Shown: one piece after another, positions 15,446 through 61,644 of the stretch
Numbering within the stretch: the stretch's first letter is position 1
Layout of the letters: each line of letters starts with the position of its first letter
From: Candidatus Tenderia sp.
Lineage (GTDB): Bacteria > Pseudomonadota > Gammaproteobacteria > Tenderiales > Tenderiaceae
Assembly: GCA_031416075.1 (NCBI GenBank)
Contig: JANOSY010000073.1
Span: 3,822 to 67,821, forward strand
Direction: 5' to 3'
DNA: 64,000 nt
Notes under the pieces: model-generated
Told to the model about the DNA's origin: nothing
Database searches by the model: none
What the model saw: the letters and a program-made list of their open reading frames with translations, nothing else
Made by a program: the position numbers and the translations under genes

Positions 15446-15586
15446 AAGTTCGGCATTGCGGAGGGCGATGCACCGGCATGTGTGGCCTATTTTTCACCCC
15501 TCCACCCTTGCTATCACTCCTCCTCCATTTGCCATATGGCCTTTAATTATTCAGTTCGTGCCCCGATGTGCACGAAGGAGAGAGAT

Positions 15587-17416: not shown

Positions 17417-17500
17417 ATATTGGCACAGTACCCTCCTCTGTTTAGGGAGGGTGTTGTGATCACATTGAAACACACTTACTTTTAAAACAGGCGCGATACT

Positions 17501-18082: not shown

Positions 18083-18086
18083 TGCC

Positions 18087-23351: not shown

Positions 23352-23365
23352 ACAGAAGAGATAAT

Positions 23366-28061: not shown

Positions 28062-29353
28062 TAAAATTTTCCGTAAACCATTTTCGAATTATATGTTACG
28101 TTTCCGGCCATATCAACAGCTTCAACAACCAATATATTTATCCCCTGTTGCAATGTTAAAGCTTTAGAAAAAGTTCCATCACCTGCTATCGATATAGGTT
28201 CCCCTGTCACAAAAATATTGACACCAGGCTCACTTACACCCGTCAATATAAAATCAGAATTATTGATTATCTTATTAGGGAAATTAACCTTTAATAGTGG
28301 AGGAACTTTGTCCTGAATAACGCTTATTTGTCCAGTTTTACTATATGGTCCGTGCACCCATGAATGGGATGCATTAACTCGCCAGAAATAATCCCCTATG
28401 TATAAATTTCCCAAACTAAAATTGTTTGACATGACAACATCATCAACTATCAAAATATTAAAATCTTTATCTTTCGATATTTGGATACGATAATTATCTG
28501 ATTGTTTTACATTCTTCCATTTAAAATAAATTTTTGTGGGTAAGTCACGATAATAAAAAATGGATTTATGAGATGGGCTATCTAGTTTAACCTCTGGAGG
28601 TAACTCTTCTGAGTTCCGCATAGGAACACCGTCTTTCGCTGTTATGGACTGATTTTCAGTCACCACAACCCGCTGTCCCATAGAGGTGAATTCTGCTGTT
28701 CCAGAGTAGACAGTTAACGTTGATGATTTATCAGGATTCACTTTTATTGTAAATTCGGCCACTTCTCCCTCACCAGAAACGGCAGCCACTGCATTTGAGG
28801 TGGCCACTTCAACCCGCAATCCCTGTTTATTTGATCCGCTAATAGTGCCACTCAGCTCACCATCAACAACTATGATCTGAGAACGCCTCTCATTACGGAA
28901 CATACCCTTTTCCAGATGCTGAACGATAATCAGTGAATTTTCGCCAATAGAGAGGCGGTTACTTTTATCAAAAACAATATTTGCTCCTGATCCACGGAAA
29001 GTTTGTATTGCATCCTGATCAAACAGAGGAGTGCCTGAATCAACACTTTCCCATGCCATCCCACCAGCGGGTTTCCGTTTAACTGTCTGTTTTGTTCTAT
29101 CCAATACAGCCGTCAACCCCTTAATATCAAGCAGTCCTGCCTCATAGTCCCCCACACTGACAACCATATTGCGCTTTCCAACTTCATCTTTTTTATGGTC
29201 TTTGTTGAGAATTCCAATCAAACCACTACCAGTAGGAAAAACATTATTAATCAACATCATAATAATGCCAAATGCAATAAGGACCAAAATCAAGGCAATT
29301 AATACCTCGACTATACGAACAGATACAGACATTGAGTTTGTTTTTTCTGTCAC
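28061..29353 (-). CDS. Membrane-anchored FecR-domain protein with a C-terminal Ig-like region, a putative periplasmic signal-transducing or surface-associated partner.
   Basis: N-terminal TM VRIVEVLIALILVLIAFGIIMMLI, a central beta-rich region resembling FecR, and a C-terminal Ig-like stretch. Overlaps the histidine kinase start. Confidence 0.45.
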   Translation of the reverse strand: MTEKTNSMSVSVRIVEVLIALILVLIAFGIIMMLINNVFPTGSGLIGILNKDHKKDEVGKRNMVVSVGDYEAGLLDIKGLTAVLDRTKQTVKRKPAGGMAWESVDSGTPLFDQDAIQTFRGSGANIVFDKSNRLSIGENSLIIVQHLEKGMFRNERRSQIIVVDGELSGTISGSNKQGLRVEVATSNAVAAVSGEGEVAEFTIKVNPDKSSTLTVYSGTAEFTSMGQRVVVTENQSITAKDGVPMRNSEELPPEVKLDSPSHKSIFYYRDLPTKIYFKWKNVKQSDNYRIQISKDKDFNILIVDDVVMSNNFSLGNLYIGDYFWRVNASHSWVHGPYSKTGQISVIQDKVPPLLKVNFPNKIINNSDFILTGVSEPGVNIFVTGEPISIAGDGTFSKALTLQQGINILVVEAVDMAGNVTYNSKMVYGKF

Positions 29354-29641
29354 GGGTCATAGTTACAGCCCAATCATATATTCAGGCTGATCCCCCCTGT
29401 AAAATAGATAAAACCAATAAGAGCTTATGGTATGTATCGGCATTGGAAGGCCAGCCATGAACACAGGATTACAATAATTCACAACTAACTAAGTATGGAT
29501 GGAGTATTGTTTATAAAATAGTACGGATATTATGAATAGAAAATATTTAATCTTTAATAGCCAAAAACTTCACTGAAAAAATTATATTCTTAAATGCAAA
29601 TTAAGTCACCACCGGAAAATCCGGGGGACTGCCTTATTTAT

Positions 29642-35703: not shown

Positions 35704-36315
35704 TCAATTAATACGCGCACGAAACATGAACGAAACAACTTTACCAGCAGGAATATTAACCACTCCATTGGTCTGCCCTGTATGCGCCCCCATGGTAATT
35801 AAATCAGGTGAGACCGCAACATTAGCAGAGGCCACATCCGCATTAATGGCATCACTCAAAGAAATTCCGCTACCACTTGCATTGGTATCGTTAAATATTG
35901 TGGCTAAAGATGCAGCGCTATTGGTAGTGTTGTTATTCCATGTTAAAGAGCCTGCTTGATAGGTAAAGTCCGTATCATTGAGTTGATCCTCAAGCCTGAC
36001 ATCAGATGATTGCGTACTAGTTGAGTTATCTATATAAATAATAAATTTTACGATACTGCCCTTTACAACGGAGCTGCCACTAACAATTTCCGTGCCCGTG
36101 TTATCATCCAGAAATGCTTTTTTTACTACGGCTAACGTAGCACTGGTAATTGTTAGCGTTGCAGAGTCTGTAATGTAATCGGTGTCTGACAATGTAGGGT
36201 CAGCGCCTAAATTAGCCCGCCCGATATTAGTCGCAGACCACGCTAATGAAGATGCTGAAAGCAAGTACAAAGAGAATATAGAGCAGACTAACTGTGTTTT
36301 TAAATTTGGTCTCAT
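35704..36315 (-). CDS. Small secreted DUF11-like protein, paralog 1. Putative surface/fibre subunit.
   Basis: Signal peptide MRPNLKTQLVCSIFSLYLLSASSLAWSA. Ser/Thr/Asn-rich. DUF11-like core VVKKAFLDDNTGTEIVSGSSVVKGSIVKFIIYIDNSTSTQSSDVRLEDQLNDTDFT. C-terminal FMFRARIN. Paralogous to the 36432..37067 product. Confidence 0.5.
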   Translation of the reverse strand: MRPNLKTQLVCSIFSLYLLSASSLAWSATNIGRANLGADPTLSDTDYITDSATLTITSATLAVVKKAFLDDNTGTEIVSGSSVVKGSIVKFIIYIDNSTSTQSSDVRLEDQLNDTDFTYQAGSLTWNNNTTNSAASLATIFNDTNASGSGISLSDAINADVASANVAVSPDLITMGAHTGQTNGVVNIPAGKVVSFMFRARIN

Positions 36316-36431
36316 AGGAAACCCCTTATACTTCTTTCAGAGAAAAAATCCTTCGTTCTCTGGCACTGTTAATATGTGTAAAAATCCATGTAATACACAA
36401 CAAACAACGTATTTAAATAGCTGTATTAAAC

Positions 36432-37067
36432 TTAATTCATTGTGACTCTGAAACGAACAGCAACTCGACGCGGGTCAACTACAGGGTCAGCTTGTGTTGA
36501 CTTCACTATATTAAGCACAGCATTACCACCACCAAGCCCCACGGTCACCTGATTGGCTGTTGAGACATTCCAGTTAAGTTGATCGGCATCAACAGCCGCC
36601 GTCATAGCATTCCATGTCAAACCATTCCATGTTCCCCCACCTGTTCCAGCAGTTGTCCACGCAGTGTCGTTGCCTGCTGTCATCTCTATTCCTGGTGATG
36701 CAACTGTGTTAAGAATTTCGAAACTGGTGGGTACAACAGTAAAGGCACCCGTATCGATAGCATCTATAAAACGCACATCACTAATATCCACAGATGAGCT
36801 GTTATCCACATAGAGTACAAAATAGAACTGCATCCCTGAAGGAATGCTGGCACTGGCACCTAGATTGTTACCATTAAGATTGCGCGCCTCTTTGGTAATT
36901 CCAAGCGCTGCTGCATTAATTGTGATAACCCCTGAATTAGTTAAACTAACCCCGCCCCCTCCTGGATAAGTGGCCTGATTGGTTGCGGCAAAGGCCGATG
37001 TCCCAAGAAGCATGGGTAAACTTGCTATGCCACTTAACCATAGTTTTCTACTTCCAACCCCGCTCAT
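36432..37067 (-). CDS. Small secreted DUF11-like protein, paralog 2. Putative surface/fibre subunit.
   Basis: Signal peptide ...LPMLLGTSAFAA. Core ITKEARNLNGNNLGASASIPSGMQFYFVLYVDNSSSVDISDVRFIDAIDTGAFT follows the same pattern as paralog 1 and as the DUF11 segment of the giant protein. C-terminal RFRVTMN. Confidence 0.5.
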   Translation of the reverse strand: MSGVGSRKLWLSGIASLPMLLGTSAFAATNQATYPGGGGVSLTNSGVITINAAALGITKEARNLNGNNLGASASIPSGMQFYFVLYVDNSSSVDISDVRFIDAIDTGAFTVVPTSFEILNTVASPGIEMTAGNDTAWTTAGTGGGTWNGLTWNAMTAAVDADQLNWNVSTANQVTVGLGGGNAVLNIVKSTQADPVVDPRRVAVRFRVTMN

Positions 37068-46862: not shown

Positions 46863-48248
46863 TTGAACGACACCCCCTTCTCCACCCTGAAGCTCAACCC
46901 GGCCCTGCTGGATAACGTCCTATCACTGGGATATGAGGCCATGACCCCCATACAGGCCCTCAGCCTACCACCCATTCTGGCTGGGAAAGATGTCATTGCC
47001 CAAGGCAAAACAGGCTCTGGCAAAACAGCTGCCTTCTCCCTGGGGCTGCTCCAAGGGCTTAATATCAGACGCTTTTGCATTCAGGCACTCATCCTCTGCC
47101 CAACACGGGAGCTGGCAGACCAGGTCGCCAACGAAATCCGCAAACTAGGCAGAACCCTCAACAATTTAAAGGTACTGACACTCTGCGGCGGCACGCCGTT
47201 TGGGCCACAGGTCGGCTCTCTGGAACACGGCACCCACGTAGTGGTGGGTACCCCAGGACGTATCGCCGACCACCTGCGTCGAGAAACACTGGACCTAAGC
47301 AACCTGCAAATATTGGTGCTGGATGAGGCGGACCGCATGCTTGATATGGGATTTCAGGCGGAGATCGAGGCGATTATCAAGCAGACTCCCACACAGCGTC
47401 AAACCCTGTTATTCAGCGCCACCTTTCCGGAACAGATTGATACCATCGCCCAGCGGATCATGAACGACCCCGTCACCGTGCAGGCCATCAGCACCCATGA
47501 CAACAGCACCATCCAGCAGCACTTCTATCAGGTAGAGGATAGCGACCGGCTGACAGCCCTGCGTCTGCTGTTATTAGAGTTTCGCCCCGCCTCGGCGGTT
47601 GTCTTTTGCAACACCAAAATCAACACCGCAGCGGTGGCCGACGAACTGCGTGGCCACGGTTTTAGCGTGTTGGCACTGCACGGTGATCTGGAGCAGCGAG
47701 ACCGCGACCAGACCCTGGCACGGTTTGCCAACAAAAGCGCCTCCATCCTGGTCGCCACCGATGTGGCCGCCCGCGGCCTCGACATCGACACCCTCGATGC
47801 CGTCATTAACTACGACATCGCCCGCGACGCCGAAACCCACGTCCACCGCATTGGTCGCACGGGCCGGGCAGGCAGCAATGGCATCGCCTGCACCCTTTAT
47901 AGTGAAAAAGAACGTGGCAAAATCGCCCGCATTGAACTCTACCTGGATCAGGCAATGGAGAGTCAGCCACTGCCACCACTCACCCTGCTCGACCACCCCC
48001 CCTACACACCGCCCATGACAACGCTGCAGATCGATGGTGGCAAAAAACAGAAAGTACGCCCCGGTGACATCCTCGGGGCGTTAACCGGTGAGGCCGGCAT
48101 CACCGGCCAACAGGTAGGCAAAATTCAGGTCTTTGAAAACTTTGCCCTGGTTGCCGTCAACCGCGATGCAACCAAAGCAGCGCTCCAGAAACTGACCGAC
48201 GGCAAACTCAAGGGGCGCTCATTCCGGGTAAGAGAGATACGGGGCTAA
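46863..48248 (+). CDS. dbpA: ATP-dependent RNA helicase DbpA (DEAD-box) with a C-terminal 23S rRNA-binding domain.
   Basis: Q-motif/Walker A AQGKTGSGKTAAF, DEAD (LDEADRML), SAT, HRIGRTGRAG. The C-terminal DbpA RNA-binding domain ends ...KGRSFRVREI. Confidence 0.9.
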   Translation: MNDTPFSTLKLNPALLDNVLSLGYEAMTPIQALSLPPILAGKDVIAQGKTGSGKTAAFSLGLLQGLNIRRFCIQALILCPTRELADQVANEIRKLGRTLNNLKVLTLCGGTPFGPQVGSLEHGTHVVVGTPGRIADHLRRETLDLSNLQILVLDEADRMLDMGFQAEIEAIIKQTPTQRQTLLFSATFPEQIDTIAQRIMNDPVTVQAISTHDNSTIQQHFYQVEDSDRLTALRLLLLEFRPASAVVFCNTKINTAAVADELRGHGFSVLALHGDLEQRDRDQTLARFANKSASILVATDVAARGLDIDTLDAVINYDIARDAETHVHRIGRTGRAGSNGIACTLYSEKERGKIARIELYLDQAMESQPLPPLTLLDHPPYTPPMTTLQIDGGKKQKVRPGDILGALTGEAGITGQQVGKIQVFENFALVAVNRDATKAALQKLTDGKLKGRSFRVREIRG

Positions 48249-48257
48249 TCCCCCACC

Positions 48258-49148
48258 TCACGGCTCTACCGGGTCAGCGGGGTGGATTTTGGGTTCCTGG
48301 TAGGCGGTGTTGATGGTATACCCCTGTGCCGCCAGGGCTTTTTCCTTGGCGTAACGTTCCCGTTTCATCCCTTTAATCTTCTCAACCCAAAGGGTTTGCC
48401 ACTGCTCACGCTGTTCACCGGCAAACTGCCGTTTGGCCTCTTCCACTTTACTATTGATAGAGAAGCTCAGCAGATAGGCACCGGGTTTATCGGGGTCCAT
48501 CCGTTTAATGTCGCGGCGGATGGCAAGCGTCATAAACAGGTCATCGGCATAGAGGTACCAGGTACCTTCAACGGACATCCACTCCTCCAGGGTGGGGACG
48601 TAATCAACGGGAAGTCCCAGCCCCATGCTCTCTTCGGCGACATAATGGTAGGCCTCTTCGCCACTCAGCCTAGGGTCGTCATAAAAGAGATTCTGTTTCC
48701 ACCCCGCCTTAAGCAGTTTCTGCAGGAACAGAATGAGATGTTTTCTGGCATCGTCGTGGGAGATGAGACCTGTAGGGGTAATACTGGCAGATATATGGAA
48801 TTTATATATTCCCTCTTGCGGATTGCTGAGATCTTCCGTGCCCATCACACCAAGCGCCCGGGGGACATCAAAGCTATGCTCCCCATGCTCGAGGTAGACG
48901 GTGCCAGGTTTTTTTGTCTCCCAATCGAGGCTATAGAAATTGAGGCCAGCGGGCTGGCGGTCGATGTTGTTGCTGTCCAGCCCGGTACGTTCGAGGAACT
49001 GGGGGCCGGTTTCACCAATCCTGATACGGATGCTGGTCGGTTTCATGGTGTGCATGGCGTTGTACATGGGTGTCTCTCCAGGAGAAGTATTGTTGCAGGC
49101 GACTGGCAGCAGCGGAAACAGTAATAGGCCAAGAATCCAGCAGCGCAT
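48258..49148 (-). CDS. Lipoprotein of unknown function; candidate immunity protein for the upstream putative effector.
   Basis: Start taken at MRCWILGLLLFPLLPVAC (lipobox LPVAC). Begins 1 nt after the stop of the 337-aa gene. No recognisable enzymatic motif. Confidence 0.45.
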   Translation of the reverse strand: MRCWILGLLLFPLLPVACNNTSPGETPMYNAMHTMKPTSIRIRIGETGPQFLERTGLDSNNIDRQPAGLNFYSLDWETKKPGTVYLEHGEHSFDVPRALGVMGTEDLSNPQEGIYKFHISASITPTGLISHDDARKHLILFLQKLLKAGWKQNLFYDDPRLSGEEAYHYVAEESMGLGLPVDYVPTLEEWMSVEGTWYLYADDLFMTLAIRRDIKRMDPDKPGAYLLSFSINSKVEEAKRQFAGEQREQWQTLWVEKIKGMKRERYAKEKALAAQGYTINTAYQEPKIHPADPVEP

Positions 49149-49149
49149 C

Positions 49150-50163
49150 TCAGTAGACCCAGCGGGCGTCGGGTGAGTCAACCCAGCGGGCGATGGTGGC
49201 TAGTTCGTCCACCATATGGTCTGTTCGTCCCAGCATTAAGTCATGGAACAGTGTAGCTGCCTTCTCAATCCACTTCATACGACTCTCAAAATCCTCCACC
49301 ACCATGTCGTCGGGGGCTACCGATTTGAGTTGTGGATTGCGGGTGGAGCAGGCGTGGGTAAAGACGATCTGGTAGGTGGGGGCGGCCCAGCGCCAGTAGG
49401 TACGTTCCCGTACCAGCCATTTTTTGAAGATGGGGTCTTCGTAGATCAGCGGTTGCAGCACCTCATCCTGCTCATGGTTGGCGATGGCCATCAGGTGTTT
49501 GAGTTGAATGTCTTCTCGTCTTTTTGAAGGGACCATCTTCTCGATCTGCACCACATAGCGGAACCCCTCTATCAAGTGTGATGTAGCCTGAAAATGGTCA
49601 ACTTTGTCCAGGGATTTGCTGGCCCAGGGCAGATCATTGACGGCCTGTTTGACTGGCGACTCCAGCTGATTGGCGTGGCGTTTGTCGATGCAGGCCATGC
49701 CGCTGAAGAAGTGGTGTGGATAGTGGTTGTAAAACCAGTGGGCGGGGGCGATGTCGCTGTAGAGCCAGAGGTTGCCCTGCCCCAGGCCGTTGGCAACCTC
49801 CTCGGCATCAAGCGGGGTGATATTGCCAACCAGATAAGCGGACTGTATCTGGAAGGTGTCGAGCAGGCAGGCGACGGTTTTGCTGGCAAAGGCGGCCAGC
49901 GCCATCCAGTAGTAGCGGCCCCGTTTGCTGGGGTCACCGCCCGCCTCTGTCTCCAGATAGAAACGGGCGTAGGTGGCGGCAATGCGACGGGCGCGGGCGG
50001 CATACAGGCCGATCAGCTTGTATTGGCCATTGCCCTTTTTATCCGATAGACGCAGATAGGAGAACTGCTGCGCCTGTGACCAGAGCAGGTCGCAGTTGGC
50101 GGTGATTGTATGTTGCTTGTTGGGGGCGTCGTTGCGGGCGTTGATCGGGTATTCAAGTGGCAT
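49150..50163 (-). CDS. Hypothetical 337-aa protein; candidate cargo effector delivered via the adjacent PAAR-like protein.
   Basis: Starts 5 nt after the stop of the DUF4150 gene. No signal peptide. No motif recognised (His-rich patch WFYNHYPHHFF). Followed by a lipoprotein gene, which is the classic effector/immunity arrangement. Confidence 0.4.
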   Translation of the reverse strand: MPLEYPINARNDAPNKQHTITANCDLLWSQAQQFSYLRLSDKKGNGQYKLIGLYAARARRIAATYARFYLETEAGGDPSKRGRYYWMALAAFASKTVACLLDTFQIQSAYLVGNITPLDAEEVANGLGQGNLWLYSDIAPAHWFYNHYPHHFFSGMACIDKRHANQLESPVKQAVNDLPWASKSLDKVDHFQATSHLIEGFRYVVQIEKMVPSKRREDIQLKHLMAIANHEQDEVLQPLIYEDPIFKKWLVRERTYWRWAAPTYQIVFTHACSTRNPQLKSVAPDDMVVEDFESRMKWIEKAATLFHDLMLGRTDHMVDELATIARWVDSPDARWVY

Positions 50164-50168
50164 TGCCG

Positions 50169-50831
50169 TTACCCCTCCTGGCCATCTGGGGTGGCACTGA
50201 AGTTTTCCCAGAGGATGTAGCAGTCGATGCTCTCATCCTTTTCGGTGGAGGCGATGGTGGTTTTGCCGTAGAGGGTGGTTTTTTGCGGATTCTCCTGCCC
50301 GTCCACGGGCGTGGCGGCGGCCACGGTCTGGTATTTGATCCCCTGCAGGGGTTGCCCCAGCTCATCCACCACCTGAAAGCGCAAGGTGTAGAGGGGTTCG
50401 ATCACATCATCGGGGATATCCACCGGCGCGGTGGCGGCACCGTAGGTCATGCCGATGGTATTGCGGTTGTTCATGGTGGTGGCGTCCATGTGCCGTACTA
50501 CCCCCTCCCCTTCGGCCTTGACGTCGAAGGAGTAGCTGACAAAGTGGGTTTTGTCGCCGGTGGTGCCGGAGGCCACCCCGGTGGCGCTGCCTGCCTGGTC
50601 GCCGCTGCACCGGGTGTGAATGGAGCTGGCGATGGCGGTGGGGTGGCCGTCGATGGTGACGGTGGTGGTGGCCCCGGCCAGATCACCCGCCTGGCTGCTG
50701 ACACCGTAGGGGATCGGCGGGATGCTATTGCCCATGGGGGTTTTGCAGACATCCGGCGCACTGGAGAGTGAGGTATCACCACTGCCGACGTGGCTGAAGT
50801 TGCGGTTGTTGGCAAATACGCTGCGGGTCAT
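50169..50831 (-). CDS. DUF4150 (PAAR-like) domain protein, a T6SS spike-tip adaptor/effector carrier.
   Basis: PDVCKTPMGNSIPPIPYGVSSQ ... HPTAIASSIHTRCSGDQAGSATGVASGTTGDKTHFVSYSFDVKAEGEGVVRHMDATTMNNRNT is the DUF4150 signature recalled from Tse7 (PA0099)-type proteins. Has an extra C-terminal tail of about 90 aa. Confidence 0.65.
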   Translation of the reverse strand: MTRSVFANNRNFSHVGSGDTSLSSAPDVCKTPMGNSIPPIPYGVSSQAGDLAGATTTVTIDGHPTAIASSIHTRCSGDQAGSATGVASGTTGDKTHFVSYSFDVKAEGEGVVRHMDATTMNNRNTIGMTYGAATAPVDIPDDVIEPLYTLRFQVVDELGQPLQGIKYQTVAAATPVDGQENPQKTTLYGKTTIASTEKDESIDCYILWENFSATPDGQEG

Positions 50832-50873
50832 GGAGGCTCCCTGCCTGTTGGTTATCTAGCTGTGGCGAACAGT

Positions 50874-51911
50874 TTATACCGCCGTCAGGCAGAGTGCACT
50901 CCGATAACCGCCATCGGAAGAGGCATATACCAGGGTGCTGTTATTGCCCCCTGCTTTTATATCCAGCGTCGCCAGACCGATAGCCACCGGGGCGGAGGCT
51001 GCGCCGATGTCGCCAAAATATTCCGCCGGGCGGTAGATTTTGCAATCAGCGGTGATGCGGTGTTGCAGCCGCTGGCGGGCGACGGTCAACTCCTTGGTGT
51101 AGTGCATCTCGCCATTTTCTGAGCTGTACAGGGCACTGATCATGCCCGCGGTGGCGCTGGTCGCGTGCTGAAAGGCGGTGGCCAGTGCCTCTGCGGTGTA
51201 GGGGGCGCTCCCCAGCAGGTGGCCTGGTTCATAGACGGTGGCGGGCAGGTGCAGCACCAGCTGGCTGTTGGCACGTACCGCCGCGGGGGCGTGGGGGGAG
51301 GTCAGGAGCAGAAACCCAGCCCCTTCCCCCGGTACAAAACCATCAAAATTGCCGTTACCGCTCAGCCGTCTGGTGTCACCCAGTATGCCGAGTGTGCGGA
51401 GGTCATAAAAGCTGTCGATGCCCCCCACCAGGGCATAGTGTGCGTCGGTGGCACTGAAAAACTTAAGGGCGGTGGCAATCGCTTCGATCGACCCGGCACG
51501 CCCCAGGCTGATGCAGCGGCTGTTGCCAATATCCAGCATGACACCGGTGGCCTTGGCCAGATGGTTAAGAAAACCCTGGTTGAGGGCGGTGTGTCCATAA
51601 TAAGGTTCGGGACCGGCGAGAAAGAGTGGCAGGGGGACGTTGGGCAGTTGTGGTGCCAGATCGGCCAGTGCAAACGCCGCCAGTCTGAGCAGGCGGATGT
51701 GGGGGGGCGACATGCCTGGCAGCCTATCGGGGAGGCGGATTTTCAAGGCCCCCTCCGGCACCGGTGAAAACTGGATGGGCGGCTCATCTCCACCGGCCAG
51801 GGGGCAGTACTGGTAACTGCTGATGCCTGCATCGATGGCTGTCTTGACCATCACTGGATCGGCCCCCAGGGGGGTCAACATGCTCACGCCACTCAGGTAT
51901 AGCTGCGTCAT
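50874..51911 (-). CDS. Beta-ketoacyl-synthase-like (thiolase-fold) protein, the PA0098-type T6SS-associated KAS-like protein.
   Basis: Condensing-enzyme-like fold with an N-terminal ...LYLSGVSMLTPLGA and a GGxDS region. Its position between the DUF2169/helical protein and the PAAR-like gene mirrors the P. aeruginosa vgrG1b locus. Confidence 0.6.
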   Translation of the reverse strand: MTQLYLSGVSMLTPLGADPVMVKTAIDAGISSYQYCPLAGGDEPPIQFSPVPEGALKIRLPDRLPGMSPPHIRLLRLAAFALADLAPQLPNVPLPLFLAGPEPYYGHTALNQGFLNHLAKATGVMLDIGNSRCISLGRAGSIEAIATALKFFSATDAHYALVGGIDSFYDLRTLGILGDTRRLSGNGNFDGFVPGEGAGFLLLTSPHAPAAVRANSQLVLHLPATVYEPGHLLGSAPYTAEALATAFQHATSATAGMISALYSSENGEMHYTKELTVARQRLQHRITADCKIYRPAEYFGDIGAASAPVAIGLATLDIKAGGNNSTLVYASSDGGYRSALCLTAV

Positions 51912-53191
51912 TGCCCTCTCCTTTGGTAGAGTGTCGCCTTGGCGTTTGGGTAGGCGGCGGCAGGTGCCAGCAGGGCCAGCTCAATGGCGGCGGCCATCCT
52001 GTGGCGCTGCCGTCCGCGCATCAGGATGTACTGAAGCCACTCCGGTTGCGGTGGCCGCCCCAGCAGATAACGCTCCCCTTTATTAAAGTGCTGGCCTATC
52101 TGTTGCCAATGCTGCTGGACTTTGTCTGCGTCTGGCTGGGGCAGGTTGGTATCTTCAGCAAAAATGGGGGATACATCCTCCATCACTGTCTCATCCAGGG
52201 TTTCATTTAGGGGTTCATCAGGCTCAACTGGCGACGGGGCAGTCAGAGACATCTGCAACAGATCAACACCGGTGATGGTGCTGAACGCCGCCCCTGCCGC
52301 CTTGGCGTACTGCGGCAGCTGCATACGCCCCAAGAGCCACTCCATCCCCAGGGGGTCGCCATGGGTGGCCACGGCGGTCATCGCCTGCCGTGTCTGCTCC
52401 GGGGCCAGTATCAAGCCGTTTAACCATGACCAGAGTGGGGTGTTACGTTTCTGCCGGAAGACCAGATCAATCGCGGCGGCCTGCCAGGGGCCGGGCTGCA
52501 TCACGTAAGGTTCAAGGCCCGCCAGTGCACCCTGCTCCCCCAGCAGCAGGGCTGACCAGCCGCCCCAAAAGGCGATGGCCGGTTCGCTACTGCGCTGGGC
52601 ATCCATCAGTCGCGGCAGCAGATCGTGACGTTTGATTTCGCCCGCCAGCCGTAACATCCGGCTATACAGGGGGATGTTTGCCACTGCCTGTTCGTTGTTA
52701 AACAACATATCTAAATAGTGAAGCGGGTCCAGACGCCGGACACTACAGGTGGCGATGGCAAGATAGTGGTACATCCCGTCCGAGTCCCCTATCCATAGCT
52801 TTAACCAGGGGTAGATACACGCCTCCGGCAGCCAGCCCAGGGCCGATACCAATCCTTTAAGTGTCTCGCTGTTCTCCGTGCCGATCGCCAGTGCCGTCTC
52901 TATGTTGCCTTGATCGTGGCTGCTGAATGCCAACATCGCCAGAACAAAACATTCACCGCCCTCTTTAAACTCCGCCGCTTGCAGGGCGTACCCCCACGCC
53001 GCTGTCGGCGCAGCCATCAACCCCTTGAGATGGGCGTTAATACGGTGCTCCAGTTTTTCAATGGTGGCGGCCGTAGGGTCTGTGCCATCGCAGGCCTGGG
53101 CGCGCAACATCCAGAGAAACGCGGCGTCGCTGGCGTGCTGTTCAATCACATAGCTAAACAGCGCTGTTTTATCGATAAGCAGATTCACCAT
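51908..53191 (-). CDS. Hypothetical 427-aa alpha-helical protein (TIGR02270-like / HEAT-like), T6SS-effector-module associated.
   Basis: Helical repeat-like composition with no catalytic motif. Translationally coupled to DUF2169 upstream and the KAS-like gene downstream. Confidence 0.45.
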   Translation of the reverse strand: MVNLLIDKTALFSYVIEQHASDAAFLWMLRAQACDGTDPTAATIEKLEHRINAHLKGLMAAPTAAWGYALQAAEFKEGGECFVLAMLAFSSHDQGNIETALAIGTENSETLKGLVSALGWLPEACIYPWLKLWIGDSDGMYHYLAIATCSVRRLDPLHYLDMLFNNEQAVANIPLYSRMLRLAGEIKRHDLLPRLMDAQRSSEPAIAFWGGWSALLLGEQGALAGLEPYVMQPGPWQAAAIDLVFRQKRNTPLWSWLNGLILAPEQTRQAMTAVATHGDPLGMEWLLGRMQLPQYAKAAGAAFSTITGVDLLQMSLTAPSPVEPDEPLNETLDETVMEDVSPIFAEDTNLPQPDADKVQQHWQQIGQHFNKGERYLLGRPPQPEWLQYILMRGRQRHRMAAAIELALLAPAAAYPNAKATLYQRRGQ

Positions 53192-53195
53192 GGTT

Positions 53196-54191
53196 TCAAC
53201 GCCGAAGATAGAGCGCGATGGTGCGGATCAGGGGGAAAAGATTGCTGCATGGGTAACAGGCCTTCCAGGTGAACGAGAGCTGCATAGTATTCAGGTCGAT
53301 GATGACGGTCTCCATCACAAAGTACAGCGCCTGCTGCGGCTGCCGGATGGCTTGAACATTACCCGCCAGGCCGACCCGTGGTAACAGAAACTGGATCACA
53401 CCAGAGGGGTGCATGTTATTGAGCACCACCTCTTCTCCACCGGTCAGGGGGCTTTTGCATATTAGCCCCTCTGGCGCAGCGTTTTGAAAACGCGGCTGGT
53501 AATCCAGCGGTAGATAGGGTGCCCGGCTGCGCTGCCACGACTCATCATAGGTACCGGCATAGTCAGCACGGGGTGACCAGTGTGGTGCAATGAAACCAGA
53601 CCCCGCAGGGGCGGGCTGGTCATTGAGCTGCTGGATCAGCGCAGCTGGATCTTCAATATTAGGCAGTGGCTGTCCCTCCATCGCCGCCGCTGAGCGCCCC
53701 CCACAATACCCTTTGCCAACCGGGTTTCTCGGCTCCAGGCTGATCAATATATCCTCCACCCGCACCTCGCCACCAAAGGCGTTTTCATAACAGATGGGCA
53801 TCTCGGTAAAGGCCTCTGGCGGGGTGATGCGCCCCTGTCGCCAGAACCGGTCGCCAAATACCCGCAGGCTCTTCTTGCAGGGGCCAATGGCGAGGGCGAC
53901 GTCCAGTTGTCGCACCGCCTTACCCACCGCTGCCCAGGCGCTGCCCAACACCGCAATGTCAGTCCCCCGCTTGCCGGGATGTACATCACTGGGGTATTTA
54001 AGGCTCGACTGCCCAGGTGCCCCCCAATAGATATCCTCACCCACTGGCGCGGGCTGCGGCTGGCTTAATATCCACTCTGGCCCGATATCAAAGGTCGCTT
54101 TAACGTTGACGTACAGGGTATCTATCCCCTGTTCATTAGGTAGCAATACATAGTGGGCCGCAAAAGGGGTACTGTTCTTTAACGCTAACAT
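53196..54191 (-). CDS. DUF2169-domain protein, a T6SS-associated adaptor family.
   Basis: N-terminus MLALKNSTPFAAHYVLLPNEQGIDTLYVNVKATFDI matches the DUF2169 opening (PF...D.L.V.VKATF), from recall. First gene of the six-gene minus-strand island. Confidence 0.55.
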   Translation of the reverse strand: MLALKNSTPFAAHYVLLPNEQGIDTLYVNVKATFDIGPEWILSQPQPAPVGEDIYWGAPGQSSLKYPSDVHPGKRGTDIAVLGSAWAAVGKAVRQLDVALAIGPCKKSLRVFGDRFWRQGRITPPEAFTEMPICYENAFGGEVRVEDILISLEPRNPVGKGYCGGRSAAAMEGQPLPNIEDPAALIQQLNDQPAPAGSGFIAPHWSPRADYAGTYDESWQRSRAPYLPLDYQPRFQNAAPEGLICKSPLTGGEEVVLNNMHPSGVIQFLLPRVGLAGNVQAIRQPQQALYFVMETVIIDLNTMQLSFTWKACYPCSNLFPLIRTIALYLRR

Positions 54192-54409
54192 TCCGTTGAG
54201 CCTTCTCTCCTGTGGCGGGTAGTATTACCTATCCAGCCGTTTGTTTGCCACATTTCAAAAAACCAAATGGCGCGGCGGCGTTACTATTCCCCAGCGGTCA
54301 ATCGTCTCTCACTAAAGAGTCTGGTACTCTTCACCCCATCTATTAACCTGTTAAATAAGTAACACCAACAGAGCCTGCCACACGCTCAGGCGATATCTGC
54401 GAGGTAAAT

Positions 54410-55750
54410 ATGGAAAAAATCGATACCCTGATTCAAGGACGCTGGGTGATTCCTGTAGAACCACAAGAGGTTGTACATGAGCACCACGCCATTGCAATTC
54501 GCGATGGCCGCGTCATCGACATCCTGCCCACCGCCGTGGCGACACAAAAATATCAGTCCACTACCACACACCACTTTGAAAACCACGCCCTGCTGCCGGG
54601 CATGATCAATACCCATACCCATGCGGCCATGTCACTCTTCCGTGGTCTAGCCGACGATCTACCGCTGATGGAGTGGCTCAACAACCACATCTGGCCCGCA
54701 GAGTCGACCTGGGTGAGCCGTGAGTTTGTGCGGGACGGCAGCCGTCTGGCCATCGCTGAGATGTTGCGCGGCGGTACCACCTGTTTCAACGATATGTACT
54801 TCTTTCCTGATGAGACCGCTCGGGTAGCGGCTGAGGCCCACATCCGCGCCACTGTCGGCATGATTCTGATCGACTTCCCAACGGTCTGGGCCAGCAACGC
54901 CGATGAATATATCCACAAAGGGTTGGCACTGCACGATGAGTATCGCCACCACCCACTGATCCGCACCGCCTTTGCACCACACGCCCCCTATACCGTCTCC
55001 AATGCGCCGCTAGAGCGGGTACGGGTTCTAGCGGAAGAGCTGGACATCCCCATCCATATCCATCTGCACGAAACGGCCGATGAGGTAAGTGGCAGCCTTA
55101 AACAGTACCAACTGCGCCCTATGGCACGATTAGAACAGCTTGGTCTGCTCTCACCACGACTGCTGGCAGTGCACATGACCCAGCTCACCGAGAGTGAAAT
55201 CAGCCGTCTCGCCCAGGCCGGCGGCCATGTGATCCACTGCCCGGAGTCCAATCTCAAACTGGCCAGTGGTTTCTGCCCGTTGGCCAAGTTGCTCAAGGCC
55301 GGTATCAACGTGGCCATCGGCACGGACGGTGCCGCCAGCAATAACGATCTGGATATGTTTAGCGAGATGCGTAGCGCCGCCTTGCTAGCCAAGGCAGTAG
55401 CCCAGGACGCCAGTGCCGTGCCTGCCGCAACCGCCTTAAGCATGGCCACCCTCAATGGTGCCAAAGCATTGGGCATTGATAATGAGGTGGGGTCGTTAGT
55501 GGTAGGTAAAGCCGCTGATGTTATCGCCGTCGACCTCGGCCAGCTGGAGAGCCTGCCCATCTACAACCCCATCTCACAACTGGTCTACGCTACCAGCCGT
55601 GACCGTGTCAGCGACGTCTGGATCGGCGGCAAGCAGGTGGTCAGGAGTGGTACACTGACGACCCTGGACGGCCCCGCCATCCAGCGCCGCGCCCGTGAAT
55701 GGGGGGCAAAAATTAACGCTGAAAATCATAAACTAAACCACAGTAGTTAA
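54410..55750 (+). CDS. mtaD: 5-methylthioadenosine/S-adenosylhomocysteine deaminase (amidohydrolase, TRZ/ATZ family).
   Basis: [30 protein letters not shown] metal-binding HxH motif and amidohydrolase fold. Conserved synteny upstream of ubiG. Confidence 0.8.
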
Positions 55751-56943: not shown

Positions 56944-59049
56944 GTGTCACGACTAACCGATTTGATTGCACAAGCCAAAGCCAAAGACTCCAAACTTGGG
57001 GCAGACCTGGACAGGGAGTTCAAGGTTCTGTCTTCGCGTTTGCCTTTCGGCCTGAATTTCGAGCGGCATAGTCCAGAGGCGGTTGAATTGCCGCTGCGCC
57101 CCATTCGCAAGGGCGACAAGGTGCGGGTGCTGCCGGAGCGCGGTTCGACCAAGAGGGGTGACCAGCGACTGTGGCAGGTCAAGGCCATCTACAAGGCGAG
57201 GAAACTGGCCGATTTGGAACTGCTGGGTGCTGCGAAAGCAGAAACGAAATCTGTGGCGCTTGAGGATATGGTGGTTGTGGCCGAGTTCCGCGACACGATC
57301 TATCCGGGCTTGGTGAGTACAGGAAAAGTGGTTCGTGGCGACGACCAGCCGTTTCACTCGGTCATCAATGGCGAGAACTACCATGTGCTGAAGGCGCTGA
57401 CCTATACCCACCGGGGCAAAGTGGACGCCATCTACATCGACCCACCGTACAACACAGGCGCGAAAGATTGGAAATACAACAACGACTACGTCGAGGGGGA
57501 CGACCTTTATCGGCACAGCAAGTGGCTAGCGATGATGGAGCGGCGCTTGCTTGTGGCCAAGGAATTGCTGAATCCTTCGGATTCGGTGCTGATCGTCACC
57601 ATAGATGAAAAGGAATACATGAGGCTTGGGCTGTTGCTCGAACAGACATTTCCTGAGGCGCGGATTCAGATGGTGAGTTCTGTCATCAACCCCAAAGGTG
57701 TTCCTCGAGATGGATTTTCCCGTGTGGACGAATACATCTTCGTTGCACAATTTGGTTCGTCGGAGATTGTTGGTGACATCAAAGAAGGAAGTGGAGGCAC
57801 GGAAGTTCGTTGGCGCGGTCTGACAAGAACGGGTGCAAACGGCATCCGCAGTAAGTCACCCGGCGCGTTCTATCCAATTTTTTTCAACAAGGCCGGCATG
57901 ATTATCGATGTTGGCGATGCTCTGCCAATCGAGCACGACGCAAGCTCCGTGCCCCCCCGAAAGGGGGTAATTGCCGTGTGGCCTACACCTCGTCCCGATG
58001 GGGAGGATGGGCGATGGTCCGTCGTTCCCGAGCGATTGAGGGAATTAATCAAGATTGGGGCGGTCAGAGTCGGACGCGTAAAGCCCGACGAAGGGCAATT
58101 CCCAATCTTCTACCTCACATCCGAACAGCTTGCGGCAATCGAGTCGGGAAAACTGGAGGTACGAGGTAAATCTCAAAAGGGCGTACTGCAAGTCTTCTTC
58201 CGTGAGGATGGAGGACGGGTTTCCTCGCCTCGAACCGTGTGGGATAAGGTAAGTCATAGCGCGAGTGAACATGGTTCTGGCCTGCTGAAGGCATTGCTCC
58301 CTGGGCGCAAGTTCCCATATCCAAAATCGCTCTATGCGGTTGAGGACGTGCTTCGGCTTGCCGTTCGAGATAAGCCCGAAGCTGTCATCCTCGATTTCTT
58401 TTCCGGCTCTGGCACCACCGCCCATGCCGTCATGCGCCTAAACCGACAGGATAGCGGAAACCGTCAATGCATTTCCGTCACCAACAACGAAGTCGCCGCT
58501 GATGAGCAGAAAGCGTTGCGCGAACAAGGCTTGCGCCCCGGCGACGCCGAGTGGGAAAAGCACGGCATCTGCGACTACATCACCAAGCCGCGTGTGGCTG
58601 CCGCGATCACTGGCAAAACACAGGACGGCGAACCGATCAAGGGCGACTACAAGTTCACCGATGAATTCCCGATGGCCGAGGGCTTTGAGGAAAACGCCGA
58701 GTTTTTTACCCTGACCTATGAGGCCAAGGACGCGGTCAACCATAATCTCGCCTATGCCCGCATTGCTCCAATGCTGTGGTTGCGTGCAGGTGCGCGCGGC
58801 AAGCGCATCGACAAGCTGCCTGCCGATGGCTGGGCAGTGGCCGACACCTATGGTCTGCTGACCGAAGTGGACAGAGCCACGCCATTCATCAAGGCGGTGA
58901 AAAAGGGCAAAGCGTTGCGCGTCGCCTATATCGTCACCGACGACGACCGCCGCTTTCAGGCCATCGCCAAGCGATTGCCCGATGGCGTGGAGCCGGTGCG
59001 CCTGTACGAGTCCTACCTGACCAATTTCAGTTTTACTAACGGGGAATAA
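56944..59049 (+). CDS. mod: Type III restriction-modification system methyltransferase (Mod; N6-adenine, DPPY family) with an N-terminal extension of about 150 aa.
   Basis: Motif X/IV ENYHVLKALTYTHRGKVDAIYIDPPYNTG, and an AdoMet motif FFSGSGTTAHAV later in the sequence. Immediately followed by a helicase-type Res gene. Confidence 0.8.
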   Translation: MSRLTDLIAQAKAKDSKLGADLDREFKVLSSRLPFGLNFERHSPEAVELPLRPIRKGDKVRVLPERGSTKRGDQRLWQVKAIYKARKLADLELLGAAKAETKSVALEDMVVVAEFRDTIYPGLVSTGKVVRGDDQPFHSVINGENYHVLKALTYTHRGKVDAIYIDPPYNTGAKDWKYNNDYVEGDDLYRHSKWLAMMERRLLVAKELLNPSDSVLIVTIDEKEYMRLGLLLEQTFPEARIQMVSSVINPKGVPRDGFSRVDEYIFVAQFGSSEIVGDIKEGSGGTEVRWRGLTRTGANGIRSKSPGAFYPIFFNKAGMIIDVGDALPIEHDASSVPPRKGVIAVWPTPRPDGEDGRWSVVPERLRELIKIGAVRVGRVKPDEGQFPIFYLTSEQLAAIESGKLEVRGKSQKGVLQVFFREDGGRVSSPRTVWDKVSHSASEHGSGLLKALLPGRKFPYPKSLYAVEDVLRLAVRDKPEAVILDFFSGSGTTAHAVMRLNRQDSGNRQCISVTNNEVAADEQKALREQGLRPGDAEWEKHGICDYITKPRVAAAITGKTQDGEPIKGDYKFTDEFPMAEGFEENAEFFTLTYEAKDAVNHNLAYARIAPMLWLRAGARGKRIDKLPADGWAVADTYGLLTEVDRATPFIKAVKKGKALRVAYIVTDDDRRFQAIAKRLPDGVEPVRLYESYLTNFSFTNGE

Positions 59050-59052
59050 AGC

Positions 59053-61644
59053 ATGAAGTTCACCCTCAAAGACTACCAACGGGACGCTGTGCGCGATGCA
59101 TTGGCCAATATCAGAAAAGGGCATCGCCTTTGGCACGCTGAGTCCGACAAGACTGCGTTTTCCCTGACCGCTGTAACGGGTGCGGGTAAAACAGTGATGG
59201 CCGCCGCCGCATTCGAGGCGCTATTCCATGGTGATGACGAATTTGATTTCGATGCTGACCCCGGCGCAGTGGTGATCTGGTTCAGTGATGATCCTTCGTT
59301 GAACGAGCAGACCCGCTTCCGCCTGATGGAAGCCAGCGACCGCATCAACTACACCGATCTGGTGGTGGTGGAAAACACCTTCAACCGCCCCAGGTTTGAT
59401 GCCGGGAAAATCTATTTCCTTAACACGCAGAAGCTGAGCAAAAACAGCTTGCTGGTTCGCGGCCACGATCAGGAGGAGATGGAGGCCAAGGCCGGTAATC
59501 TGCTGCCGGAAACCCGTCCCGACCTGCGTGCTTACACTATCTGGGACACGATCCAGAACACCATCGAAGACCCTGAGTTGACGCTTTATCTGGTGCTGGA
59601 CGAGGCGCATCGAGGCATGGGCAAGCCGACCACTGCGGCGGAAAACTCAAAAAGCACCATCGTGCAGCGGCTCATCAATGGCTCCGGTAGCGTGCCCGGC
59701 ATCCCTGTGGTATGGGGTATATCGGCGACGGTCGAGCGTTTCAACAAGGCCATTGAGTTTGCAGGCAAGCACATCAAGCTGCCGAACGTGGTGGTGGACG
59801 CCGACAAGGTGCAGGAGTCCGGCCTCATCAAGGACACCATCCTGCTGGATATTCCGGACGAGACCGGTGATTTTGATACCGTACTGGTGCGACGCGCGAC
59901 CGACAAGCTGAAGGACTCGACCGTTGCCTGGAACGAGTATGCCAAGCAACAGCAGGAGGCGCGCGTTGTTGTTCCGCTGATGGTGTTGCAGGTACCCAAT
60001 ACACCCGACCCGAACGAGATCGGTCGCGCGCTGGATACCATCTTCCAGCGTTACCCCGAGTTGCCTGCGGCCAGCGTGGCACATGTGTTCGGCGACCACA
60101 CCACACAGCGGTTTGGCAACCGTGATGTGCCCTACATCGAGCCGCAGCGCGTCCAGGAATCCACCTGGGTGCGTGTGCTGATTGCCAAAGATGCCATCAG
60201 CACCGGCTGGGATTGCCCGCGCGCTGAGGTGATGGTCTCTTTCCGTGCCGCCAATGATCGCACCCATATCACCCAGTTGTTGGGACGCATGGTGCGCTCG
60301 CCGTTGGCGCGCCGCATACCCGGCAATGACCGGCTGAATGCAGTGGACTGCCTGCTGCCGAAGTTCAACAAAAAAACCGTAAGGGAAGTGGTAGATGCCT
60401 TGATGTCTGGTGACGACTCAGCGCCACCATCCGGGCGCATCCTTGTCGACTACGTGGAGCTGAAGCCGAACCCGGACGCATCCTCTGCCATATGGGTAGC
60501 ATTCGAGGCATTGCCATCGCAAACCCGTCCGCAGCAAGGCGCGAAACCAGCGAAGCGCTTGACCGCGTTGGCTCACGAGTTGGCGTCTGATGACATTCTC
60601 ACAGGCGCAGGCAGGCTGGCCCATGGCGAGATGCACAAAGCGCTGGATGCCTTTCAGGAAAGCCAGCAGGAGAAGATCGAGGCCAAGCGCAAGTCAGTAA
60701 TGACGGTAGAGGGCAAGACCGTGATCGCCGACCTGAAGGGCAAGGAAAAGAGCTTCGATGAATTCTGGGAAGACGCCGACATGGCGGTGATTGACGATGC
60801 CTACCGGCGTGCAGCACGCGTTTTCAGTCCGGACATTGCACGCACCTATGTCGATCATCTGGCACAGAAGGTTGCCAGCATGGACGACGACCCGGAGGAA
60901 TATCTGGAGGCCATCGTTGAGGCGCGTGTCACTGTCGCGGGCTTGGGCCTGGTTACGGAGGTGCAGGGCTACTTTGATGCGGAAGCCGACAAGCTGGCAA
61001 AAGCATGGATCGCGAAGTATGCGCCGCAGGTCAAGCTGCTGACCGACGACCGCAAAGAGTCCTACCGGCAGATCATCGAAATGAGCACCGAGCCGCAAAG
61101 CGTGGATTTGGCCAAACCCGAATCGCGCTATGAGGCAACCAAGGCGCGTGAAAAGGATAAGGAGATTGTTTTATCGACATGGAAAAACCATCTGCTTTGC
61201 GACAAGGATGGAAAGTACCCTGCCGAACTGAACGAGTGGGAGCGTACGGTTGTCGAGACCGAGACCAAACGTACCGGCTTCCGCTTCTGGTACCGCAATC
61301 CGCAGCAGCCGGGACAATCTTCGCTGGGCATCGCCTATATCGAGAATGAAGAATACAAAATCGTCCGCCCGGACTTTCTTTTCTTCGCCGAGCAGGACGG
61401 CAAGGTGGTGGTGGATCTGGTTGACCCGCACGGCTTGCATCTCGCTGACGCATTGACCAAGCTGCAAGGTTTGGCGTTATACGCCGAGAAGCATGCCAAG
61501 GCATATCGTCGTATCGAGTCCATTGCACAGGCAAAGGGGAAACTGCGCGCGCTTGATTTGACTAACGAGGATGTGCGCAAGGGTATTGCCGCAGCAACAA
61601 GCGCGGAGGGCCTCTTTTGTGGGATGTTGGCAAGAGACTACTGA
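59053..61644 (+). CDS. res: Type III restriction enzyme Res subunit (SF2 helicase-nuclease).
   Basis: Walker A AVTGAGKTVMAAA, DEAH box LVLDEAHRGM, and further helicase motifs (ISATVERF, QLLGRMVRSP). Starts 3 nt after the mod stop. Confidence 0.8.
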   Translation: MKFTLKDYQRDAVRDALANIRKGHRLWHAESDKTAFSLTAVTGAGKTVMAAAAFEALFHGDDEFDFDADPGAVVIWFSDDPSLNEQTRFRLMEASDRINYTDLVVVENTFNRPRFDAGKIYFLNTQKLSKNSLLVRGHDQEEMEAKAGNLLPETRPDLRAYTIWDTIQNTIEDPELTLYLVLDEAHRGMGKPTTAAENSKSTIVQRLINGSGSVPGIPVVWGISATVERFNKAIEFAGKHIKLPNVVVDADKVQESGLIKDTILLDIPDETGDFDTVLVRRATDKLKDSTVAWNEYAKQQQEARVVVPLMVLQVPNTPDPNEIGRALDTIFQRYPELPAASVAHVFGDHTTQRFGNRDVPYIEPQRVQESTWVRVLIAKDAISTGWDCPRAEVMVSFRAANDRTHITQLLGRMVRSPLARRIPGNDRLNAVDCLLPKFNKKTVREVVDALMSGDDSAPPSGRILVDYVELKPNPDASSAIWVAFEALPSQTRPQQGAKPAKRLTALAHELASDDILTGAGRLAHGEMHKALDAFQESQQEKIEAKRKSVMTVEGKTVIADLKGKEKSFDEFWEDADMAVIDDAYRRAARVFSPDIARTYVDHLAQKVASMDDDPEEYLEAIVEARVTVAGLGLVTEVQGYFDAEADKLAKAWIAKYAPQVKLLTDDRKESYRQIIEMSTEPQSVDLAKPESRYEATKAREKDKEIVLSTWKNHLLCDKDGKYPAELNEWERTVVETETKRTGFRFWYRNPQQPGQSSLGIAYIENEEYKIVRPDFLFFAEQDGKVVVDLVDPHGLHLADALTKLQGLALYAEKHAKAYRRIESIAQAKGKLRALDLTNEDVRKGIAAATSAEGLFCGMLARDY

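Follow-up and report, generated by a model that had tools for sequence, protein, structure and literature searches.

How a type VI secretion system (T6SS) spike tip is put to use at a locus that carries no vgrG gene, and which protein it would deliver, is the question raised by six genes at positions 48258-54191 of the DNA analysed here, a window of 64,000 nucleotides (nt) from Candidatus Tenderia sp. (GCA_031416075.1, contig JANOSY010000073.1, positions 3,822 to 67,821). We consider it likely that this island is a VgrG-less ('orphan') effector-immunity module loaded through a domain resembling transthyretin (TTR-like). The candidate cargo is a protein of the Pfam family DUF2515, its candidate immunity partner is an exported lipoprotein, and the target of DUF2515 is probably periplasmic. 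In the order of transcription, the genes are as follows (aa, amino acids):

53196..54191, minus strand: DUF2169 protein (TvpA-type chaperone of PIPY domains), 331 aa (PF09937, 2.2e-87, 293.6 bits)
51908..53191, minus strand: accessory protein of helical repeats (TIGR02270, HEAT/armadillo-like), 427 aa (231.3 bits, cutoff 206.8)
50874..51911, minus strand: thiolase-like PRK06147 homologue (TvpD-type accessory), 345 aa (NF004798)
50169..50831, minus strand: spike-tip protein of the PIPY (DUF4150, 'PAAR-like') type that ends in a TTR-like domain, 220 aa (PF13665)
49150..50163, minus strand: DUF2515 protein, candidate T6SS cargo effector, 337 aa (PF10720, 2.9e-60)
48258..49148, minus strand: lipoprotein, candidate immunity protein, 296-aa precursor (start ATG 49148, not TTG 49181)

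The original prediction, made from the letters of the window, had described six tightly coupled minus-strand genes. The coordinates bear this out, since the six open reading frames (ORFs) are co-directional and intact, with inter-gene gaps of 4, -4, 42, 5 and 1 nt. With such junctions, the six genes almost certainly form a single operon. Profile searches placed the proposed DUF2169 and DUF4150 identities far above threshold and likewise recovered TIGR02270 for the helical protein.

The 337-aa protein had been put forward as a separate effector candidate without a toxin motif. It is indeed a separate cargo protein with no recognisable catalytic or toxin similarity, but it is not domain-less: its match to PF10720 covers model positions 2-293 of 294 and scores 204.5 bits against a gathering threshold of 24.3. 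Pfam gives DUF2515 no functional annotation. The literature searched yielded no mention of DUF2515, PF10720 or IPR019658, no link of the family to T6SS spikes, nothing relevant for YppC and, in the supplements of a PAAR survey, nothing either. The suggestion of an undescribed effector family held. The structural comparison that had been proposed gave a confident, all-alpha AlphaFold2 model (predicted local distance difference test score, pLDDT, 89.5) with no relative among solved structures in the PDB. The protein has no signal peptide and no transmembrane segment. A profile search of 1.8 billion proteins for distant members returned 363 cluster representatives, and the longest among the best 150 of these has 535 aa. 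Since this is too short for a fusion to Rhs, VgrG or a large PAAR protein, we read DUF2515 as a cargo rather than as the tip of a polymorphic toxin.

What would tie this cargo to a spike is the tail of the PIPY protein, which consists of two parts:

50451..50765, minus strand: PIPY/Tox-PAAR-like domain, aa 23-127 (PF13665, 2.8e-33)
50187..50426, minus strand: TTR-like effector-docking domain, aa ~136-215, ~70 aa (recurrence and profile match)

The literal PIPY motif, of the form P(I/V)P(Y/F), can be read at aa 39-42. The tail had been described as short and lacking a fused nuclease; there is no fused nuclease, but the tail proved to be a separate TTR-like docking domain. This became apparent from a comparative set of one genome per species, giving 80 loci that carry DUF2515 in gamma- and betaproteobacteria and in two Sulfurovum, in which ORFs were called with 10-kb flanks and clustered, and the clusters were named via Pfam. 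An iterative search of 838 neighbour ORFs found the TTR-like domain at the extreme C-terminus of the protein upstream of DUF2515, whatever the carrier: VgrG, PAAR and PIPY proteins may end in it, or it forms a small ORF of its own, free-standing with 95-97 aa in three loci. A frame-independent search located the domain in 78 of the 80 loci, with a median distance of 38 nt between its end and DUF2515.

For 44 of these tails, Pfam models returned nothing beyond sub-threshold Ig-like matches. A profile of the 44 copies matches residues 781-830 of Escherichia coli VgrG1 (6sjl_A; 6sjl/6sk0) with an E-value of 6.5e-6, which is the C-terminal TTR domain. It also matches residues 10-57 of Pseudomonas aeruginosa VgrG2b (6h56_A, E 1.1e-4), the TTR-like start of the effector domain. 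Judged by this profile comparison, the ~70-aa tail is homologous to the effector-docking C-terminus of VgrG1, which leads us to regard the 220-aa protein as a PIPY-TTR carrier onto which DUF2515 would dock. One report implicates the TTR-like domain in a specific interaction with Tle1 (PMC13324451).

Two further arrangements of this domain were seen among the loci. In a Colwellia metagenome-assembled genome (MAG; L022, 4976-12550), the thiolase-like gene separates an ORF for the PIPY domain (126 aa) from one for the TTR-like domain (95 aa), the TIGR02270 gene follows the immunity genes, and VgrG and DUF6484 lie upstream, giving a natural 'split' module. In two Acinetobacter loci (L039, 14294-14839; L043, 14310-14855), the TTR-like domain (E about 1e-9) also occurs in a 181-aa ORF located four genes downstream of the DUF2515 pair. 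Further small genes come after this ORF, and the region may represent a second module of TTR-linked cargo, one whose effector is different.

The gene that follows DUF2515 in the window had been predicted to encode a lipoprotein with an LPVAC lipobox. The signal peptide and the conserved Cys stood, whereas the start had to be moved:

48258-49181, minus strand: ORF as first called, containing MRCWILGLLLFPLLPVAC
49095..49148, minus strand: lipoprotein signal peptide MRCWILGLLLFPLLPVA and the C that follows it (Cys18), with Asn at +2, read from the sequence

In loci from Marinimicrobium and Endozoicomonas, an in-frame signal peptide ends in LLGC and LIAC, respectively, and in both of these as in the window its ATG lies 1-3 nt past the DUF2515 stop codon. 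Because an in-frame signal and Cys follow the DUF2515 stop in two divergent loci, we take ATG 49148 as the true start. Public gene calls begin 27-38 codons late, after the signal peptide, and give proteins of 264-271 aa, so that the exported nature of the family is hidden in databases. Such late starts are found in L001 (6198-7007), L002 (11095-11889), L003 (11079-11879) and L005 (11101-11916).

Profile searches returned no family match for the lipoprotein, but its homologues could be collected from 77 loci (n=100, of which 93 are full length). By an automated criterion, 64 of the 93 carry a lipobox and 22 an N-terminal hydrophobic anchor without Cys. Six of the seven left unclassified show a lipobox-like Cys by eye, and the single full-length homologue without a visible export signal is a truncated ORF call. 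The position of the lipobox Cys is conserved across the family, lipidation being predicted. Since nearly all homologues carry an export signal, the partner of DUF2515 is an extracytoplasmic protein, which supports the proposal of a periplasm-facing immunity protein and hence a periplasm-acting effector.

The surroundings of DUF2515 show how closely these elements travel together. Position +1 is occupied by a lipoprotein homologue in 78 of the 80 loci, and the contig ends there in the other two. At position -1 we found a VgrG (called from Phage_base_V, T6SS_Vgr and DUF2345) in 43 loci and a protein of the cluster sharing the TTR tail, mostly PIPY, in 24. A canonical PAAR protein stands at -1 in L025, L026, L027 and L032 and at -2 in L013, and the remaining members of the TTR-tail cluster at -1 are short stand-alone TTR ORFs or other carriers. 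The order of TTR-like domain, DUF2515 and lipoprotein homologue is fixed across the 80 loci. A VgrG, PAAR or PIPY gene lies directly upstream in nearly every locus, a neighbourhood on which the original prediction had staked its effector candidate. Linkage to the T6SS is also observed in other genomes: several loci have T6SS core genes (TssJ, TssK, TssM, ClpV, TagF) at a distance of no more than 10 kb, and the order in Oleispira is TssM, TagF, ClpV, DUF6484, DUF2169, thiolase-like, PIPY, DUF2515, lipoprotein. Two of the most distant DUF2515 representatives directly follow a VgrG of 970-981 aa. This arrangement of TTR-like domain, DUF2515 and exported protein has the hallmarks of an effector-immunity pair.

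The copy numbers bear on whether DUF2515 is a toxin at all. It might instead be an accessory or structural factor of the spike, such as a cap, a chaperone or a TTR-bound adaptor, with the lipoprotein as an envelope factor for firing or recycling and the toxicity residing elsewhere. The lack of any recognisable catalytic or toxin similarity would fit this, as would an island so rich in accessory proteins, and in Serratia marcescens a gene beside a VgrG-linked immunity gene proved not to be an effector (PMC13373197). However, accessory factors are not normally multiplied, while two to four lipoprotein-family ORFs occur in 19 of the 77 loci, the lipoprotein copies being duplicated up to 3-fold, and truncated pieces of DUF2515, behind each of which stands an intact lipoprotein gene, occur in L004, L005/L007, L012, L016, L056, L069 and L071. 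Extra lipoproteins with DUF2515 fragments are the pattern of orphan toxin-immunity arrays. In addition, the DUF2515-lipoprotein pair moves as a unit behind three kinds of carrier, with or without Tvp genes, and the combination of an exported partner with a signal-less DUF2515 is unlike cytoplasmic chaperone/client pairs. We therefore regard an accessory role as unlikely and keep the effector-immunity reading. As an observation on its own, the gammaproteobacterial MAG locus L004 (1765-18482) carries the whole six-gene module in tandem duplicate, with extra DUF2515 and lipoprotein genes and DUF2515 fragments on both sides and dbpA nearby.

Where and how the effector would act can be approached from its conserved residues. 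Invariant positions of the DUF2515 alignment include R57, R60, R67, E71, E73, R83, D137, H142, R162 and H230-E231-Q232; many Arg, Glu, His, Tyr and Trp are invariant, and the four Cys of the window protein are the four conserved Cys columns. Such polar and aromatic residues, together with the Cys and the exported immunity protein, point to a soluble enzyme acting in the periplasm of the prey, probably stabilised by disulfides. An effector that damages the inner membrane from its periplasmic side, by depolarisation or pore formation like VasX, Tse4 or Ssp6, and whose insertion the anchored partner blocks, would also agree with the wholly helical model. It would agree, too, with the 22 immunity homologues that have a hydrophobic anchor instead of a lipobox, and with Asp at +2 in 14 of the 64 lipobox homologues, which suggests inner-membrane retention; the carrier in L015 moreover has a weak match to VasX_N (5.7e-4, under cutoff). 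But DUF2515 has no membrane-spanning hydrophobic segment (maximum Kyte-Doolittle 19-residue window 1.27, grand average of hydropathy, GRAVY, -0.40), its invariant residues and four Cys resemble an active site and disulfides rather than a pore former, and most lipobox homologues carry a residue other than Asp at +2. A membrane-damaging effector thus appears improbable to us, and a soluble periplasmic enzyme remains the preferred reading. It is possible, though we hold this only tentatively, that DUF2515 is a new-fold enzyme acting on an envelope target novel for the T6SS and activated by disulfides in the prey periplasm, with the TTR-like domain as a portable, effector-specific 'address tag'. 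On that tentative reading, the invariant Arg, Tyr, Glu and His would suit a substrate bearing phosphate or carboxylate, such as a lipid-linked precursor, and evolution would have moved the tag among VgrG, PAAR, PIPY and free-standing adaptor ORFs.

The three genes at the head of the operon can be placed by comparison with described systems. The 'synteny type A' of DUF2169 comprises vgrG, DUF6484, DUF2169, an armadillo-like repeat gene, a thiolase-like gene and a DUF4150 effector, and PIPY domains need DUF2169 (Sachar 2025, PMC11883445). In another nomenclature, DUF6484 is TvpC, DUF2169 is TvpA and PRK06147 is TvpD, and P. aeruginosa PA0095-PA0099 is Tvp class II (Monlezun 2026, PMC13373197). 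The accessory genes of the island match this published type A/class II set, minus vgrG and DUF6484. Its DUF2169 protein is a single domain without a pentapeptide extension, and a function of this family as chaperone of PIPY domains is described in both studies (PMC11883445, PMC13373197). The TIGR02270-type repeat protein, whose homologues give a faint HEAT_2 signal, is shared with synteny type A; we infer that it is the 'armadillo-like repeat' gene of that type (PMC11883445). PRK06147 has been proposed as an adaptor, and its fusions with TIGR02270 were noted, the latter being fused to 3.8% of PRK06147-containing proteins (Liu, PMC7714669).

The thiolase-like gene lies, together with the TIGR02270 gene, between the DUF2169 and PIPY genes, and its product had been called similar to ketoacyl synthases. 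This holds in part: PF00109 matches marginally, over aa 139-204 only (21.2 bits against 20.8), and the alignment to the PRK06147 model NF004798 is full length (aa 2-343, 1e-42), at 146.7 bits and thus under the equivalog cutoff of 342. On the other side, there is no Ketoacyl-synt_C match, and all NCBIfam ketoacyl synthase models score far under their cutoffs. By these scores the protein is not a bona fide ketoacyl synthase. A Tla3_C match (E 0.023, under cutoff) was dismissed.

The original prediction had likened the island to the PA0096-PA0101 module of P. aeruginosa. The accessory set agrees, while the mapping has to be shifted, with PA0096 as DUF6484 (TvpC), PA0097 as DUF2169 and PA0098 as PRK06147 (PMC13373197). 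The likeness to the vgrG1b cluster (PA0095-PA0100; Tse7/Tsi7) lies in the gene order of DUF2169, PRK06147, DUF4150/PIPY tip and immunity gene. Unlike that cluster, the island has no vgrG and no DUF6484, and its toxin candidate is a separate cargo protein; its PIPY protein ends in a TTR-like docking domain, whereas Tse7 carries a fused Tox-GHH2 nuclease. The immunity protein of the vgrG1b cluster is cytoplasmic, whereas that of the island is an exported lipoprotein, which suggests a periplasmic target rather than DNA.

Loading through a TTR domain has its counterpart in VgrG1 of enteroaggregative E. coli with Tle1/Tli1 (6SJL/6SK0), where the spike also bears a C-terminal TTR-like domain just before the gene of the cargo effector. 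Tle1 acts from the periplasm, as we propose for DUF2515. The immunity protein of the VgrG1-Tle1 system is a lipoprotein. The two differ in the carrier, which is a PIPY protein in the island and VgrG in E. coli (as in the 43 related loci), and in the effector: DUF2515 is all-alpha and has no solved relative, whereas Tle1 is an alpha/beta-hydrolase phospholipase. The closest experimental analogue is CV_2124-CV_2126 of Chromobacterium violaceum, which encodes PAAR, a cargo protein that is uncharacterised and a putative immunity protein with a signal peptide. This is an orphan three-gene operon outside the T6SS clusters in which the putative immunity protein is exported; CV_2125 is described as lacking predicted domains and is secreted T6SS-dependently, and the authors suggest a cell-wall target (PMC13324451). 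We set CV_2125 aside as probably unrelated to DUF2515: the 120 best homologues of a DUF2515 protein from Chromobacterium include none from C. violaceum, and from this result and its description CV_2125 probably belongs to a different family.

The absence of vgrG next to the island was confirmed. The neighbour upstream of the DUF2169 gene is a divergent amidohydrolase gene, and the island is GC-rich as predicted (GC content 0.586, with 0.53-0.56 in the flanks and 0.486 over the whole window) and bounded by dbpA and mtaD, both now identified. The min, recQ, dbpA, mtaD and ubiG-like genes of the flanks were named from the annotations of relatives. The immediate surroundings are:

46863-48248, convergent to the lipoprotein gene, 9 nt apart: dbpA helicase gene (annotation of relatives)
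48239..48256, minus strand: weak terminator-like hairpin in the gap and overlap of the convergent lipoprotein and dbpA 3' ends (consensus match only)
54192..54409: intergenic region between the DUF2169 and mtaD-like genes, presumed promoter region of the operon (position only)
54410-55750, divergent from the DUF2169 gene, 218 nt apart: mtaD-like gene (Amidohydro_1)

A sigma-70 consensus scan of the island gave zero promoter sites.

An island without vgrG could be an inactive remnant that has lost vgrG and DUF6484 and is no longer delivered. Neither gene was found in the 64-kb window among ORFs of at least 150 aa, and the island is wedged among housekeeping genes, the convergent dbpA being just 9 nt away. 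DUF6484 is present in the Colwellia and Oleispira versions of the module, and the TvpC-type proteins of related loci have 157-179 aa. Decay is contradicted by the six intact, translationally coupled ORFs and by the distribution of the layout. The same VgrG-less six genes occur in L008-L010, L014 and L004, and in L007 save for an antisense ORF mis-call. At least five other species-level genomes share this architecture, with 50-96% identity between the proteins; its chromosomal contexts differ and it even occurs in tandem duplicate, which argues for selection. In the nearest relative, the same island lies between mtaD and dbpA, with one orphan DUF2515 fragment-immunity unit in addition. Because it recurs in differing contexts, the VgrG-less layout appears to be a conserved variant and not the product of a local deletion. 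Furthermore, orphan PAAR/effector operons outside T6SS clusters can function, as CV_2124-2126 does (PMC13324451), and an H1-like T6SS, together with further vgrG genes that are orphans, is present in the Cellvibrionaceae relatives Teredinibacter turnerae and Saccharophagus degradans (PMC2699552). Supply of a VgrG partner in trans in the window genome is therefore plausible, and a dead remnant seems to us highly improbable.

In the orphan effector-immunity module, our preferred reading, the family assignments, the fixed gene order and the linkage to T6SS genes elsewhere are observed; that the proteins bind each other, that DUF2515 is toxic, in which compartment it acts and that this genome has a T6SS we infer. 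The PIPY domain of the 220-aa protein would cap a VgrG trimer encoded elsewhere in the genome, while DUF2169 (TvpA), the PRK06147 homologue (TvpD-like) and the TIGR02270 protein would keep it secretion-competent. In the published model, a pre-complex with TvpC forms first and VgrG replaces TvpC later (Monlezun, PMC13373197). The TTR-like domain would dock DUF2515 non-covalently, as the VgrG1 TTR domain docks Tle1, and on firing the spike tip would bring it into the periplasm of a neighbouring Gram-negative cell. There DUF2515 would act as a soluble enzyme on an envelope target, its two probable disulfides forming only in that compartment. The lipoprotein, on the periplasmic face of the membrane in the producer and its kin, would bind and neutralise incoming DUF2515.

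Several points weigh against this reading. A Pfam screen of the ~44 ORFs of at least 150 aa in the window found no VgrG, DUF6484, Hcp or other T6SS core family. L008-L010 and L014, for which the sequence upstream of DUF2169 is available, also have no local vgrG or DUF6484, and the VgrG partner is for this reason an assumption. The lipobox LPVAC is atypical in having Pro at -3. We found no toxicity, secretion or interaction data for DUF2515 members in the literature. The Pfam family was seeded on YppC-like proteins of Firmicutes, which are not known to have a T6SS, so the DUF2515 fold may have a non-toxin ancestral role.

Other parts of the window hold features of separate interest. A type III restriction-modification pair (56944-61644, plus strand; N6_N4_Mtase, 701 aa, and ResIII helicase, 863 aa) is flanked by genes for a ubiG-like methyltransferase and a HAD hydrolase. 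In the 85%-identical relative L005, KilA-N and SEC-C genes take this place, which marks it as a variable hotspot about 3 kb from the T6SS island. At 11230-12432 and 13851-14702 (both minus strand), genes for an Ald_deCOase-like di-iron protein (PF11266, 1.6e-19) and a 'male sterility' NAD_binding_4 reductase are near neighbours. This pairing resembles the cyanobacterial alkane pathway of acyl-ACP reductase and aldehyde-deformylating oxygenase, which would be unusual for a gammaproteobacterium. A cobalamin salvage/remodelling cluster (15419-24430, plus strand) contains a TonB-dependent receptor, CobO/BtuR, a CobQ-like protein, a nitroreductase (BluB-like), a periplasmic binding protein, CobD, an aminotransferase and CobT. 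In the region 26220-35539 (minus strand), a 1965-aa surface protein combines domains of the types Big_1, Invasin_D3, SdrD_B, OmpA and Glucodextran_B. After it come a FecR/Glucodextran_B protein, a histidine kinase with HAMP and a diguanylate cyclase of the response-regulator type; the group may be an adhesin with its own signalling module. Two adjoining ORFs of 203 and 211 aa (35704-37067, minus strand) have zero Pfam matches at E-values up to 0.001.

The kind of system described here, a spike-docked cargo effector with periplasmic immunity, is well known; the new elements are the DUF2515 effector family and a PIPY-TTR carrier without a local vgrG or tvpC, which extends the Tvp and DUF2169 classifications. 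The analysis sets a Pfam family without assigned function in a functional context; the family occurs in hundreds of sequence clusters of gamma- and betaproteobacteria, among them Acinetobacter, Ralstonia, Herbaspirillum, Collimonas, Chromobacterium and marine Cellvibrionaceae. A new antibacterial activity is predicted, residing in a fold for which no relative has been solved. The analysis also provides a simple, testable rule, in which a TTR-like domain is followed by DUF2515 and then by an exported immunity protein. The finding of one docking domain on three spike components bears on how cargo specificity is encoded and on the engineering of T6SS delivery. If the address-tag reading is true, a single small domain would be enough to load a chosen cargo on any spike.

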